This document shows, piece after piece, positions 52,051 to 55,159 of a stretch of DNA of 64,000 nucleotides. The position numbers were made by a program, and so were the translations under genes. Under the pieces are notes generated by a model. It saw only the letters and a program-made list of their open reading frames with translations. It had not been told where the DNA came from and ran no database searches. The DNA comes from an uncultured delta proteobacterium. Lineage in GTDB: Bacteria; Desulfobacterota; Binatia; Binatales; Binataceae. How positions within the stretch are numbered: the first letter of the stretch is position 1; every line of letters begins with the position of its first letter. Location of the stretch: assembly GCA_963842085.1 (NCBI GenBank), contig CAWJET010000001.1, positions 1,184,001 to 1,248,000 of the forward strand. The letters run 5' to 3'.

Positions 52051-52345
52051 ATGCTTGGGTTCAACCTGGACATTTGGGACTATGCGACGTTTGTCGCCAT
52101 TTTCATCCAGGCCGCCGCTGCCGTTGTAGTGCTCGTTTTGCTTGCGGGATTGCCCGGTCGGATCGCGATCGGGGGGCATCATCCTGAAGCAGAAGCAGGT
52201 AAAATCATGGGCTGGGCAGGGTTTCTAGCCGCAGTTCAGTGGATCCAGGCCTTCATCTGGGCGTTCAAACCGACCGAAGGGTGGACATTCGACGCTTTCC
52301 TTCCGAAGAGCGAATAGCTGAAGCAGCGGATCTCGCTCGGCTAGG
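52051..52345 (+). pseudogene. DUF3302 (YibI-like) membrane protein with 3' frameshift
   Basis: LAGLPGRIA..HPEAEA..MGW..WIQAFIWAFKPT; continuation VDIRRFP in another frame. Confidence 0.6.
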
Positions 52346-52528
52346 TTGTGGTAAGCGGATGCCAGCCTCGGGGAATATATGCCGCCCCCCCTCCAACACC
52401 TCGGCCCGAGGGTTCTTTATAATGTGGGTGACGCGCCCCGCGAAACTAGTACGACCGGCAGTTGAGAAATTCGGCCTGGCGTGGTCGGTTAGTGCCGGTA
52501 TTTCCGGCGGTTTGAAACCTCCAGTAGC

Positions 52529-52851
52529 TCAACTGAGAACCTCTCGCAAACCGTCCGACGAAGCCGTCTCGCGCGCTGCGGTTTGCCAGCGGTCGGCGAA
52601 CTCCTCGGGCGCAGGGTCGCCGAGCGCACTGTGCGGGCGAACCTGGTTGTAATCTAGCCGCCACTGCTCGAGCTTGTCGCGCGCGTCGGCCACAGTGAAG
52701 AAGACCTGTACGTTCAAGCACTCATCACGCAGCCGACCGTTGAACGATTCGACGAAAGCGTTCTGGGCCGGTTTGCCGGGTTCGATGTAATGCCACTCCA
52801 GTCGCCCGGTGGCCCAACGCAGCACTGCGCAGCTGGTGAGCTCGGTCCCGT
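52529..52851 (-). pseudogene. IS3 orfB 3' half
   Basis: TELTS...IEPGKPAQNAFVESFNGRLRDECLN...YNQVRPHSALG. Confidence 0.9.
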
Positions 52852-52940
52852 AGTACGTCGGGAAGCGGTCATGGCCGACGATTAACACTCCTGCGATGGT
52901 TGCGGTGCAAGCCCAACCTTTAGCGGGAGGATCTCCAGCC

Positions 52941-54380
52941 ATGACCGAGAGCAACGATACGCCCCAACGCGTGACACTGGTAGCGGTGGACATCGCCAAG
53001 CACTATCACGATGTTCTTATCGAACCGCCGGCTCCGAAACGACGATGTCGGCTGCGACTGGCGAACAATCTCGAGGATTTTGAGCACTTGGCCGGTTATC
53101 TGAGAGGGTTCAAGAGTTCGGTGTTGGTCGGCTTTGAAGCGACCGGGAACTATCATCGGCCGCTGGCGTATTTTCTCCACCGCCAGGGTTGCGAGCTGCG
53201 TCTGATTTCTACTCTGGCGCTGGCCCGTACTCGCGAAGCCATGCACAACTCATGGGATAAGAACGATCCGAAGGACGCCCAAGTGATCCTCCATCTGTTG
53301 AAGACCGGATTGGCGCAGACCTGGCACGATCCAGTCGTCAACGGCATCAACGATATTCAGGAACTCTCGAAGACCCATTTCCAGGTGACGCTGGCGCGGG
53401 TACGGGTCTGGCACACGCTGCGCAACCTCTATTTCCCGGAGATTGATCGCTTCGTTCGCTCGGACCATAGCGTTTGGTTGATCCAACTGTTGGCCAGCTT
53501 TCCGACGCCGGCCTCGATTACCGCGTTGAGCGAAGAGGAGTTCCAGACGCGGGCGTGGAACCTGGTCGGCCGCAAAGTGAGCAAGCGGGCGCTGCTGGCG
53601 GAGATCTACACTGCCGCGAAACGGTCGATCGGTGTGCCGGTGGCGATCGATAGTGCCGCCATTGCAATGTTCCGCCTGGTTCTCGAGCAGTATTTGATCC
53701 TGCATCAGTTGCGTGAGCGGATCGCCGAACAGGCTGCGCTCCTGTTGGAAGGTAATTCCGATAGCCGGCGACTCATGACCGTGCCGGGCATCGGGCCGGC
53801 CAACGCCCTAACCATTCTTGCCGAGGCCGGCGATCTACGCCGCTTCCGGCACCATCGCCAGTCCCTGAATTTCTGCGGCTTGAACCTCTCCACCCTGCAG
53901 TCGGGTAAATCGCGTGGTCAGAGCCACATCTCGAAGTACGGCAATGCCAGGCTGCGTACCGCTTTGTGGATGGCGGCGCAGACCGCGGTCCGACTGCGGG
54001 AGAACAGTTTCCGTCGCAAGTTCGACAACTACGTTCGCGGCAATCCGCTCGATGCGGACCTCCGGCGTAAGGCTTACACTGCGGTCGCTGCCAAGCTGGC
54101 GCGAGTGATCTTCGGGTTGATCAAGCATCAGGTCGATTATCGGCCGTTTTTTGAACACCAGTTCCAGGTGGAGGAGCCCTCTCGTGCAAGTGCCGTTGGG
54201 GCGGTTTCGACCCCGTCGATAATGTTCGGGCCTTCCACCTGGGTTGGCATATCTGTTTTGAGTTCGGTGAGGACCACAGCGCTTGGCCTGCTGGATCCTG
54301 TGTTTACTATGGTGAGAGCCGCGCCCACACCTGAGGTGGAACCACTTGGATTGCCTGTTCGCATCAGTACGGCTGCGTAG
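52941..54380 (+). CDS. IS110 DEDD recombinase/transposase (homology ends near 54155)
   Basis: AVDIAK, GFEATG, KNDPKDA (DEDD); VPGIGP; QSG catalytic Ser; SKYGNARLR; GGGAGG RBS. Confidence 0.92.
   Translation: MTESNDTPQRVTLVAVDIAKHYHDVLIEPPAPKRRCRLRLANNLEDFEHLAGYLRGFKSSVLVGFEATGNYHRPLAYFLHRQGCELRLISTLALARTREAMHNSWDKNDPKDAQVILHLLKTGLAQTWHDPVVNGINDIQELSKTHFQVTLARVRVWHTLRNLYFPEIDRFVRSDHSVWLIQLLASFPTPASITALSEEEFQTRAWNLVGRKVSKRALLAEIYTAAKRSIGVPVAIDSAAIAMFRLVLEQYLILHQLRERIAEQAALLLEGNSDSRRLMTVPGIGPANALTILAEAGDLRRFRHHRQSLNFCGLNLSTLQSGKSRGQSHISKYGNARLRTALWMAAQTAVRLRENSFRRKFDNYVRGNPLDADLRRKAYTAVAAKLARVIFGLIKHQVDYRPFFEHQFQVEEPSRASAVGAVSTPSIMFGPSTWVGISVLSSVRTTALGLLDPVFTMVRAAPTPEVEPLGLPVRISTAA
54164..54330 (+). 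ncRNA. Putative bridge RNA (target-binding and donor-binding loops)
   Basis: Two stem/internal-loop/stem lobes whose loop strands match target and donor junction sequences (see findings). Confidence 0.65.
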
Positions 54381-54611
54381 CAGTCCGGGAGCTTTAGCTC
54401 CCGCTAACTACCCACTCAGCCGCAGTGGCGGCGCCGGTCAAGGGCGGCGTCAGCCGGCGAGCTCCGCGAGCGAACCCTTGACGGTGCGCCGACACGGAGG
54501 CTACAGCGCCGGTTCACCGTCCCTAGACTATTGCGCAATCGTAGCCCACTGCTCGCTTCGCGAGCCCTCGCAGATGTGTGTTCGCTCCCGGCCATTGCTT
54601 TCTTACTTAGT

Positions 54612-55159
54612 CCGTTGTCGCTAACCACCATCCGTGGCAGTGCGCGCTCAGCTGTTAGCCGGTCCAGTTCGCGCACCACGCGCACCCCGCCCAGTGAAGT
54701 GTCCACCACCGTAGCCAGACATTCGCGGCTGAAGTCGTCGACCACGCATAGGATGCGGAAGCGCCGCCCGTCGCTCAGTGCGTCTGCCACGAAGTCCAGT
54801 GACCACCGTTGGTTGATCGCGCCCGGTAGCGTCATCGGCGCCCTGGTTCCCAGCGCCCGCTTGCGCCCTCTGCGCCGGCGTACCATGAGCTTTTCCTCGC
54901 GGTACAACCGATAGAGCTTCTTGCGGTTCAGCACGTGACCTTCCCTCTCCAGCAGCCAGCCCAGGCGCCGATAGCCGAAGCGTCTGCGCTCCGCGGCCAG
55001 CTCGCGCAGCCGCTGCCGCAGCAGCGAGTCGTCCGGCCGCCGCGGCCGATAGTTCATGCTCGAGCGATTGACTCCGACCAGCCTGCATGCGCGCACCTGG
55101 CTCAGCCCGCGCTGCTCGACCAATCGAGCAACTGCCGCCTTCCGCGCCACAGGTTTCAA
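54612..55159 (-). pseudogene. IS3 orfB 5' half
   Basis: RRFGYRRL, WSLDFVAD, VVDDFSRECL, VVSDNG. Confidence 0.9.

Follow-up and report, generated by a model that had tools for sequence, protein, structure and literature searches.

Bridge RNAs are the guide part of compact programmable recombinase systems, which are being engineered for genome rewriting. According to the published accounts of IS621, its bridge RNA carries a target loop followed by a donor loop, its guides overlap in the bases surrounding the point of exchange, and its partner is a DEDD/Ser recombinase (PMC11208160, PMC11208158). Bridge or seek RNAs whose genes lie in an element's right end have already been published (PMC11187229; PMC11208160), and ISEc21 has been shown to insert into catalytic codons that belong to other insertion sequences (PMC11187229). 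G:U and G:T wobbles at such guide interfaces were reported as tolerated in experiments (bioRxiv 10.64898/2026.03.19.712850).

The locus described here lies in a stretch of 64 kb, the whole of which is called the window below. A first-pass annotation had proposed that the right end of an IS110-family element in this window encodes a bridge RNA with a target loop followed by a donor loop, and the proposal is supported by covariation within the structure and by covariation of guides with DNA in relatives of the element. Because a conserved paired structure carries guides that covary with DNA, the locus is read as a right-end-encoded bridge RNA with the guide order of IS621. With a probability of roughly 0.88, 54163–54317 is the bridge RNA of the IS110-family element at 52852–54615, and the target is the D-N-G-x-E-F motif of rve-type transposase genes. 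The boundaries, the conserved structure and the guide-DNA covariation were established directly from the sequences compared here. The locus is thus a well-supported new example of right-end bridge RNA, a type known since 2024, and its guide layout is the one published for IS621 (PMC11208160), with the target loop likewise first, the donor loop second, guides whose overlap covers the bases next to the exchange point and a recombinase of the DEDD/Ser type as partner.

The Element and Its Insertion Site

The element occupies 52852–54615 on the forward strand (1764 bp including the right-hand CCGT), with junctions taken from three target copies of the same genome that carry no insertion (L003–L005); these read ...GAGCTCGGTC-CCGT-TGTCGCTAACC... 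and agree exactly with the target that had been reconstructed in the first-pass annotation. The left junction, GGTCCCGT/AGTACG, falls at 52851/52852 and the right junction, CTTAGTCCGT/TGTCGC, at 54615/54616. Comparison of empty and filled sites places the left copy of CCGT, common to target and donor around the exchange point, at 52848–52851. The left end, delimited by alignment, is short (89 nt, 52852–52940, forward strand) and starts with AGTACG, the right-donor sequence, a start that covaries with the right donor guide. The right end measures about 460 nt when counted from the end of the conserved protein (~54155), and its tip, CTTAGTCCGT (54606–54615, forward strand), consists of the left-donor sequence and the shared bases. 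No comparable RNA structure was found in the 89-nt left end.

The interrupted gene encodes an IS3-type transposase (OrfB) on the reverse strand. Its N-terminal part lies outside the insertion at 54616–55159 (Pfam HTH_21 and rve), and its C-terminal part lies at 52529–52851 (Pfam rve_3, 1.8e-28), as also seen from an intact copy. The insertion point coincides with the D-N-G catalytic codons of this gene; the intact L003 copy encodes ...VVSDNGTEL.... Relatives of the element were found in Acidobacteriota, Hyphomonadaceae and some uncultured proteobacteria. With the catalytic motif D-N-G-x-E-F of rve (IS3-type) transposase genes as its target, the clade as a whole inserts into other insertion sequences, and it illustrates an insertion sequence lineage that lives by disrupting the catalytic codons of others. 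The genome holds only two copies of the element, the second of which (copy 2) lies elsewhere and is 99% identical.

The transposase reading frame (52941–54380, forward strand) is open for 479 codons. Its product, a recombinase with a DEDD (RuvC-like) and a Tnp domain and the only protein of the element, matches Pfam PF01548 (2.6e-19) and PF02371 (5.4e-25), and it reaches 212 bits with the NCBIfam model NF033542, ‘IS110 family RNA-guided transposase’, whose cut-off is 140. It is similar to the IS621 structure (7e-18) and the ISCro4 structure (7e-17), and a plasmid search with the protein returned the generic name ‘IS110 family transposase’ and no specific ISfinder name.

A Conserved Two-Lobed RNA

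The RNA gene lies directly 3′ of the transposase gene and overlaps its last codons in intact relatives; since the RNA overlaps the stop codon, the left target guide falls inside the coding tail in those relatives. Lobe 1, the target-binding loop (54163–54243, forward strand), is closed by an outer stem of 54163–54179 with 54228–54243 and contains an inner hairpin at 54198–54214. Lobe 2, the donor-binding loop (54252–54317, forward strand), has an outer stem of 3 bp (54252–54254 with 54315–54317) and an inner stem of 54270–54276 with 54292–54299. Every string and coordinate in the first-pass annotation proved correct: CCAGGTGGAGG, from 54164, pairs with CCTTCCACCTGG (54231–54242) in the outer stem of lobe 1, the inner hairpin GGGGCG/CGACCCC sits at 54198–54214, and the guide strings are found at 54190–54196 (GTGCCGT), 54217–54224 (CGATAATG), 54261–54266 (AGTTCG) and 54305–54312 (TACTATGG).

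The structure is conserved well beyond the window. The RNA region has blastn matches in 57 of 74 relative loci, and lobe 1 is ~80% identical between elements whose proteins are ~56% identical. In the Granulicella lineage, nine loci (L020–L026, L028 and L060) have a single RNA sequence in common. Among 36 distinct homologues, 97.7% of cells pair, compared with 36–45% when the partners are slid, and compensatory change is seen at 19 of the 38 consensus pairs; the observed score was reached by none of 500 shuffles. By RNAalifold consensus and pair counts, the 16-pair helix of lobe 1 is 97.0% paired with compensatory change at 8 pairs, and its hairpin is 99.1% paired. The inner stem of lobe 2 is also 99.1% paired, with compensatory change at 6/6 pairs, and its outer stem shows such change at 3/3. 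The window sequence itself makes 37 of the 38 consensus pairs.

The single sequence is less telling. Its minimum-energy fold is equal in stability to that of shuffles (z = −0.04), which counts against the bridge-RNA reading, and the comparative evidence is relied on because the single-sequence fold lacks a stability signal. The centroid of this fold retains the inner stem of lobe 2 as well as the stem of lobe 1 and the hairpin, and the guide segments lie in internal loops in the centroid and the alignment consensus alike. Folding, put forward earlier as a check, therefore bore out the placement of the guides in internal loops, but not a single-sequence stability above that of shuffles. A scan of 52500–55000 against Rfam release 15 with E values up to 1 matched no family to the two-lobed region, which also counts against the bridge-RNA reading. 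The sole hit of the scan, the family Scr6925 on the reverse strand at 54378–54507, outside the lobes, scores 26.9 bits against a gathering threshold of 50 (E = 0.084) and was rejected as a chance match in G+C-rich palindromic DNA.

Downstream of lobe 2, a conserved 3′ tail, GGUGGAACCACUUGG (54335–54349, forward strand), repeats the sequence of each strand of the outer stem in lobe 1, and pairing with either one is possible. Its pairings with the two strands are found in 95.8% and 95.2% of cells and show covariation, and the tail’s own small hairpin is 85.4% paired only. A covarying tail able to invade both strands of the target-loop stem suggests, on sequence grounds, that the RNA may undergo a conformational switch, and the RNA probably extends to about 54349.

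Guides and the DNA They Match

The four guide matches were assessed jointly, as left-target, right-target, left-donor and right-donor matches occurring in this order within 167 nt at the match quality of the first-pass annotation. On both strands of the window, the sole occurrence of this arrangement is the locus under study, and it was found in 1 of 3000 mononucleotide shuffles of 54164–54330. Taken singly, the right-donor match is the rarest (a site in 7% of shuffles), and the left-target match is weak, no better than chance, an equally good site being present in 92% of shuffles.

The donor guides track the ends of the element. The left donor guide AGUUCG (54261–54266, forward strand) corresponds to a right end of AGTCCG in the window copy and AGTTCG in copy 2. 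Over 50 loci, it follows the right-end tip in three covarying states: AGUAC with AGTAC (33 loci, and one further locus with AATAC), AGGAC with AGGAC (14 loci), and AGUUC with AGTTC in copy 2 and with AGTCC in the window. The right donor guide UACUAUGG (54305–54312, forward strand) pairs with CCGTAGTA, which comprises the core and the start of the left end. It tracks that start in two states, A being found with AGT (5 loci) and G with AGC (43 loci), and all 48 loci are consistent. The donor matches claimed from the window alone are thus supported by covariation in 50 loci for the left guide and 48 for the right.

In lobe 1, the left target guide AGUGCCGU (54189–54196, forward strand) shares the sense of GGTCCCGT, the left target on the top strand, and the right target guide CGAUAAUG (54217–54224, forward strand) pairs with the top-strand sequence CGTTGTCG through six Watson-Crick and two U:G pairs. 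The 5′ guide, having top-strand sense, therefore pairs with the bottom strand, and the top strand is the partner of the 3′ guide. At its own site, the left target guide matches 6 of 8 bases. Both mismatches fall at third codon positions of the target gene; they are non-wobble (G opposite G, A opposite C), which counts against the bridge-RNA reading. Across 37 distinct insertion events, the left target guide tracks the left flank, with 227 Watson-Crick matches against 204.7 ± 4.5 when the flanks are permuted (p = 5e-5, a permutation value that overstates independence, since the relatives are not phylogenetically independent). At position −6, a U in the guide accompanies T in the flank, and a G accompanies G (Fisher p = 0.0014; 37 events). 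At position −4, 34 events have C:C and the other 3 have U:T, without exception, and specificity is absent at position −5 across the 37 events. In the relative L052, the left target guide matches its own flank at 8/8 bases.

The right target guide behaves differently. Relatives carry its sequence GAUAAUG with almost no change, and T[G/A]TC follows CGT in all right flanks; the guide is compatible with the flank in all events, yet invariant, and covariation offers no means of distinguishing its match from a conserved protein-binding motif. Covariation of guides with targets, which the first-pass annotation had named as a check, is accordingly present for the left target guide and absent for the right.

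A side observation concerns codon degeneracy. G or U stands opposite every synonymous site of GAY-AAY-GGN, fitting at 4/4 guide positions, which are too few to test; one idea is that codon variants of the target could therefore still pair.

The clade offers a natural data set: about 50 related loci, together with 37 distinct insertion events for which junctions and empty sites are clear. Guide rules become readable from sequence in such a set: discriminating positions, e.g., the Thr/Pro codon after D-N-G, can be located (at −7/−6, left target guides of the U type belong to Thr sites and those of the G type to Pro sites), mismatch-tolerant guide positions are third codon positions, and donor guides track the element ends.

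The Exchange Point and a Proposed Mechanism

CG is the sole dinucleotide that each of the four guide matches reaches in the window copy, and C-G-T is common to target and donor in the window. The ‘probable CG core’ proposed from these matches is nevertheless not secure, as the left donor guide has A opposite G at −2 in 29 of 50 relatives and left junctions read CAT in 16 of 37 independent insertions. Right junctions, in contrast, read CGT in 50 of 50. This asymmetry indicates that the G/A base stays with its left neighbour and that exchange occurs 3′ of G/A. On the tentative sub-clade reading raised further below, the CAT/CGT asymmetry (16 to 0) would mean that exchange in this clade differs from the IS621 model, in which the top strand is exchanged 5′ of the core.

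A mechanism can be proposed in which transcription, recombinase binding and the chemistry of exchange follow by analogy with IS621 and ISEc21. The RNA folds into two internal loops, each closed by stems. The left (54261–54266) and right (54305–54312) donor guides of loop 2 would recognise the right and left ends as they are joined in the excised element, and the RNA, bound to its DEDD/Ser recombinase, would bring circle junction and target together, with strand exchange presumably at the shared ...C-G-T bases.

Condition of the Window Copy and Alternative Explanations

Similarity to the proteins of relatives stops near residue 405 (~54155), where most tblastn matches end, and some matches extend to residues 435–468. 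Intact relatives have transposases of 418–432 aa, compared with 479 codons in the window, and their stop codons fall 30–52 nt into lobe 1 at varying positions. This usual stop codon is missing from the window copy, which is why the frame runs through the RNA gene; the annotation of a 479-aa ‘transposase’ is an artefact of the lost stop codon. The window transposase also lacks four codons that are carried by copy 2 and by 9/9 intact relatives examined, and the promoter formed at the junction scores 6/12 in the window against 9/12 in relatives. With this deletion, the loss of the stop codon and a weak junction promoter, the window copy looks impaired. The earlier label of ‘candidate programmable recombinase’ would, judging from these features, suit the clade better than this copy.

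The best-surviving alternative accepts the RNA gene as genuine and holds that the window copy is a decaying, non-autonomous relic whose guides are fossils and which has no usable recombinase system, an outcome to which we give somewhat less than even odds. Decay would fit the four missing codons, kept in copy 2 and 9/9 intact relatives, and the frame that runs on to 479 codons past the stop lost from lobe 1. It would likewise fit the broken frame of copy 2 (deletions of 2 nt and 1 nt), a right-end tip that departs from the left donor guide at one U:G pair, and the presence of just two copies in the genome. Still, the window frame is open, and a four-residue deletion at a domain border need not abolish activity; transposase could also come in trans from another active copy. 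The RNA keeps 37/38 consensus pairs, and the 99% identity of the two copies implies fairly recent movement.

Another explanation takes the structure to be a 3′-UTR regulatory element of the transposase mRNA (a terminator, stability element or translational brake), with coincidental matches to flanks and ends. Signals for transcription are relevant here. A promoter scan for the RNA found no promoter-like site, which counts against the bridge-RNA reading. A junction promoter is convincing in three relatives (L052, L054 and L075) and unconvincing in the window and among the lineages of Acidobacteria and Hyphomonas, with best scores of 5–7/12. No RNA run containing the sequence was present among the runs listed in a sequencing-run search, and two soil runs of one study contain 5% of its words. 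The terminator scan gave one terminator-like hairpin, at 54131–54145 within the coding end, which would suit a 3′-UTR element, although a single site is fewer than in shuffles, and the outcome of the promoter and terminator scan as a whole favours neither side. The overlap of the RNA with the end of the coding sequence and the unvarying right target guide would also suit it. However, loop bases covary with DNA outside the RNA gene at 3 of the 4 guides, which a purely cis-regulatory structure does not predict, and we consider this explanation improbable.

Least probable of all is that 54156–54380 is conserved as the coding sequence of a C-terminal protein extension and not as an RNA: the window frame is open through the region and some tblastn matches reach residues 435–468, but most protein matches end at residue 405, intact relatives stop at varying places 30–52 nt into lobe 1, the changes are base-pair compensations across stems, and in intact relatives the reading frame includes neither lobe 2 nor the tail.

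Comparison With Described Systems

Beyond the layout of loops and guides, the element resembles IS621 in that T, which belongs to the CT core there, is invariant at the last shared position here as well. Several features set the two apart in the accounts available for IS621 (PMC11208160, PMC11208158). The IS621 RNA lies in the left end, whereas the RNA described here lies downstream of the gene for the transposase, within a long right end, and overlaps the stop codon. The IS621 recombinase has 326–328 aa compared with ~420 aa here, the shared bases are CT in IS621 and C-G-T here, and the conserved 3′ tail is an extra feature unlike IS621. Sequence similarity to IS621 is limited to the C-terminal domain (7e-18). 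The narrow, IS621-like IS110 group is defined by an RNA upstream of the recombinase gene, and the window element falls outside it.

The seekRNAs of the IS1111 group, as described by Siddiquee 2024 (PMC11187229), are likewise encoded in a non-coding region downstream of the transposase, and elements of that group also have a short left end (here 89 nt) and a long right end (here ~460 nt). Joined ends form a promoter in the IS1111 group, as in close relatives of the window element. Elements of the IS1111 group carry subterminal inverted repeats of 7–17 bp; here there are possible arms only, at 52885–52899 and 54565–54579, which match at 12/15 bases and lie 33 and 36 nt from the element ends. Lineage-specific repeats reach 18/22 in relatives, and matches between cognate ends average 9.8 against 7.7 ± 2.4 for non-cognate ends, which is not clearly above background, so that the sequences are at most suggestive of subterminal inverted repeats in the clade. 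The transposases of the IS1111 group, which are related to that of IS1111 over their full length, have about 330–350 aa (PMC11187229), compared with 418–432 aa in intact relatives here, and the guide order is opposite: the segment complementary to the top strand is 5′ in the IS1111 group, whereas here the 5′ segment is complementary to the bottom strand, as in ISEc21 and the IS110 types. ISEc21, a member of the IS110 family (PMC11187229), shares this guide order, but its RNA lies upstream of a 358-aa transposase and not downstream as here, a comparison made from the published description.

The IS110-family members of the ‘green group’ in Fig. 1b of Siddiquee 2024 (PMC11187229) likewise have transposases of IS110 type and size and a long downstream non-coding region, and the clade described here may or may not be that group. 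Within the literature cited on IS621, the IS1111 group and ISEc21, the features of this clade are not described together, and Durrant Supplementary Table 5 or Siddiquee Supplementary Fig. 2 may list it. We tentatively raise the possibility, itself rather unlikely, of a distinct IS110 sub-clade, in which a downstream RNA overlapping the stop codon would be combined with IS621 polarity, D-N-G targeting of DDE transposases with G/U at synonymous sites, and a stem-invading 3′ tail.

Insertion Site and Boundaries of the Element

When 52300-54700 was read and the proposed RNA segments were re-extracted by coordinate, all of them were found where the first-pass annotation had placed them. A search of the window's own genome with 52780-54680 returned 8 matches, among them the window copy, a second copy with 99% identity on the genome's other contig, and three sites in which the left flank runs directly into the right. 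These uninterrupted sites read GAGCTCGGTC-CCGT-TGTCGCTAACC, exactly the target that had been reconstructed from the window, and therefore place the element at 52852-54615; comparison of the empty and filled sites puts CCGT at both junctions (52848-52851 and 54612-54615). The minus-strand frames flanking the element carry Pfam HTH_21/rve and rve_3 and form, in an intact copy, one IS3-type OrfB of 285 aa (...RMVVSDNGTELTS...), in which the insertion point lies within the Asn codon of D-N-G, the second catalytic Asp motif. The same kind of site, D-N-G of a transposase gene, is given for ISEc21 in the text excerpted from Siddiquee et al. (PMC11187229). The second copy (L002; contig 2 of genome G000, 1655209-1656997) lies inside another DDE transposase gene, at T-V-D-N-G-T-E-F, and its right-end tip, AGTTCG, is a perfect match to the left donor guide.

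The protein was used in a single scan of genome contigs, which yielded 74 relative loci; most belong to Acidobacteriota, Hyphomonadaceae, or uncultured proteobacterial genomes. Their junctions, located by simple sequence patterns, were clean in most loci: left flanks read ...GAACTCnGGnCC[G/A]T, then AG[C/T]AC, and right ends TTAGTACGT or CATAGGACGT, then T[G/A]TC. Because these flanks encode D-N-G-x-E-F on the opposite strand, the entire clade targets DDE transposase genes. The copies in one Granulicella genome have the 1658-bp element alone in common and differ in their flanks, which confirms the element ends. In five Hyphomonas/Henriciella loci (L044-L048), no DNA separates the right end CATAGGACGT from a second copy's left end, AGCACATT (at ~4503 in L044). 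The two copies form a head-to-tail tandem, joined by a sequence equal to the circle junction, with a second RNA copy ~1.7 kb downstream.

A Conserved Two-Lobed RNA

At the match quality of the first-pass annotation, with wobble pairs allowed, a search of both strands of the 64-kb window for four sites in the order left target, right target, left donor, right donor within 167 nt gave this locus alone; of 3000 mononucleotide shuffles of 54164-54330, one contained such a set. The sites contribute unequally, an equally good left-target site being present in 92% of shuffles and an equally good right-donor site in 7%. Folded as a single sequence, the region was no more stable than shuffled sequence (z = -0.04); the centroid of this fold retains the stem and hairpin of lobe 1 and the inner stem of lobe 2. 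Given the unequal matches and the lack of a stability signal, the window sequence by itself is suggestive of a bridge RNA, not decisive.

Most protein matches in the relatives end at residue 405, and the DNA of 54100-54620 recovers 57 of the 74 loci by blastn. Lobe 1, the target-binding loop (54163-54243), is ~80% identical where the element proteins are ~56% identical; a coding tail or spacer would show the reverse. An alignment of 36 distinct sequences, from which L009, L034, L039, and L067 were left out as truncated or diverging inside the RNA, gave a consensus fold in which lobe 1 has an outer stem of 16 pairs and a hairpin, and lobe 2, the donor-binding loop (54252-54317), has an outer stem of 3 pairs and an inner stem of 6; a few invariant pairs lie in the loop interiors. 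On this consensus 97.7% of alignment cells are paired, vs. 36-45% with the 3′ partners slid by 1-3 columns; both-sided changes occur at 19 of 38 consensus pairs, and the observed covariation score was reached by none of 500 shuffles. The window sequence makes 37 of the 38 pairs, and the guides fall in the unpaired sides of both loops, as had been proposed.

A 15-nt conserved tail lies 3′ of lobe 2 (54335-54349, alignment columns 198-212), and two strands of the lobe-1 stem, the inner 5′ and the outer 3′, recur in it. The tail covaries with each of these strands (95.8 and 95.2% of cells paired; 85.4% for its own hairpin), and could act by invading the stem of the target loop or by joining the two lobes in a single closed domain. 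The RNA is separated from the right-end tip by ~150 nt of G+C-rich DNA (54407-54560) with long internal inverted repeats, e.g., 54418-54434 with 54486-54502. This segment is common to the window and L051, absent from L052, L054, and L075, and has a weak minus-strand match to Rfam Scr6925 (26.9 bits, below threshold); it may represent the insertion of a small repeat.

Guides That Change With the DNA

The first-pass annotation had held that the guides match the element's own target and donor sites. Among the homologs, three of the four guides vary in step with DNA outside the RNA gene, while the right target guide is near-invariant. For the left target guide (54189-54196), 37 distinct guide/flank events over 9 positions gave 227 Watson-Crick matches with the cognate flanks vs. 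204.7 ± 4.5 with flanks permuted (p = 5e-5; p = 1e-4 with wobble pairs allowed), p-values that overstate independence because the loci are related to each other. The signal is located at -7, -6, and -4. At -6, U goes with T (Thr codons after D-N-G) and G with G (Pro codons; Fisher p = 0.0014), and at -4 the flank has T in all three events with U; at -5, opposite the Gly codon's third base, no specificity was seen in the 37 events. In L052 all 8 of 8 guide bases match its own flank. The window guide has two mismatches (AGUGCCGU vs. GGTCCCGT), each opposite a third codon position of the target.

The left donor guide (54261-54266) reads AGUAC with a right-end AGTAC in 33 of 50 loci, plus one locus with AATAC, and AGGAC with AGGAC in 14; AGUUC accompanies AGTTC in the second copy and AGTCC in the window, the latter through a U:G pair. 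For the right donor guide (54305-54312), of 48 loci 5 have A, paired to the T of AGTAC, and 43 have G, paired to the C of AGCAC, with no exceptions. The right target guide (54217-54224), GAUAAUG, is invariant except in one locus and compatible with every right flank, and covariation here speaks neither for nor against pairing. The guide bases opposite synonymous third positions of the target GAY-AAY-GGN (within 54217-54224 and 54189-54196, and at the same guide positions in the alignment) are all U or G, each of which pairs with two bases. Both TATC and TGTC, and both CAT and CGT, are in use in the flanks, and the choice of U or G may be a way to tolerate D-N-G codon variants.

Core and Strand Exchange

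CG is the sole dinucleotide touched by all four guide matches in the window, and a CG core had been considered probable. A simple CG core is opposed by the relatives: the left donor guide has A opposite the G in 29 of 50 loci, and the left junction is CAT in 16 of 37 distinct insertions drawn from the window and L010-L078, as expected for a target codon AAT, whereas the right junction is CGT in 50 of 50, under a search pattern that permitted CAT as well. In IS621, according to the excerpted account (PMC11208158), the core varies at its first base and has a nearly invariant T at its second; by this analogy a G/A-T core would be at least as good a candidate. The variable base at -2 stays with the left-hand DNA in both products, which places the exchange between -2 and +1. 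The asymmetry of CAT, 16 left to 0 right, is not expected from an IS621-like exchange 5′ of a mismatched core.

Transposase and State of the Window Copy

The plus-strand transposase frame starts at ATG 52941, contains DEDD_Tnp_IS110 and Transposase_20 domains, and scores 212 bits against the NCBIfam model 'IS110 family RNA-guided transposase' (cut-off 140); among solved structures it resembles the IS621 and ISCro4 transposases, in the C-terminal domain only. In intact relatives (e.g., L010, L020, L033, and L035) the stop codon lies 30-52 nt within lobe 1, and the last 10-17 codons, the left target guide among them, are dual-use. The window has lost this stop through a TGA-to-GGA difference vs. 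L052, and its 479-codon frame therefore continues across the RNA gene to 54380; over 54156-54380 an annotator would wrongly call a longer protein. Directly before the RNA, the last conserved transposase codons contain a hairpin with a T-run behind it (GGTCGATTATCGGCC GTTTTTT, 54131-54145). No other site in the element resembles a terminator, and shuffled sequence yields at least as many.

The window transposase also lacks four codons in a stretch conserved in the second copy and nine intact relatives. The frame of the second copy is broken by 2-nt and 1-nt deletions, and those of the nearest relatives (L009, L052, L054, and L075) are broken too; these are metagenome assemblies, in which indel errors are possible. 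The bridge RNA of the window copy is itself intact. As for the suggestion of a candidate programmable recombinase, the clade is a reasonable source of such a system, but the window copy, with four codons and the stop codon lost, may not be usable as one.

Relation to Known Bridge RNA Systems

The finding is real and its main interpretation, a right-end-encoded IS110 bridge RNA, is right, being borne out by the conserved structure and by guides that change with the DNA. The element adds a well-documented example to a kind first described in 2024; some of its features are variant and deserve expert attention. As excerpted, Durrant et al. (PMC11208160) describe a target-binding first loop and a donor-binding second loop, and state that most bridge RNAs of the IS1111 group are right-end-encoded; the corresponding text of Siddiquee et al. 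(PMC11187229) reports that the RNA lies downstream in the IS1111 family and in certain IS110-family elements, that IS1111 transposases have 330-350 aa, and that IS1111 types carry the top-strand-complementary segment 5′ of the bottom-strand one, an order reversed in ISEc21. Judged by these descriptions, the clade is like IS1111 in its downstream RNA, short left end, and long right end, but differs in guide order and in its transposase of 418-432 aa, and it is therefore not assigned to the IS1111 group. Subterminal inverted repeats in the clade are suggestive only. The guide order is the same as that given for IS621 and ISEc21 in the excerpted sources and, together with the transposase length, files the clade among IS110-family bridge RNA systems, here with the RNA in the right end. 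The excerpt from Siddiquee et al. (PMC11187229) mentions an IS110 subgroup whose non-coding regions lie downstream, and the clade may be part of that subgroup.
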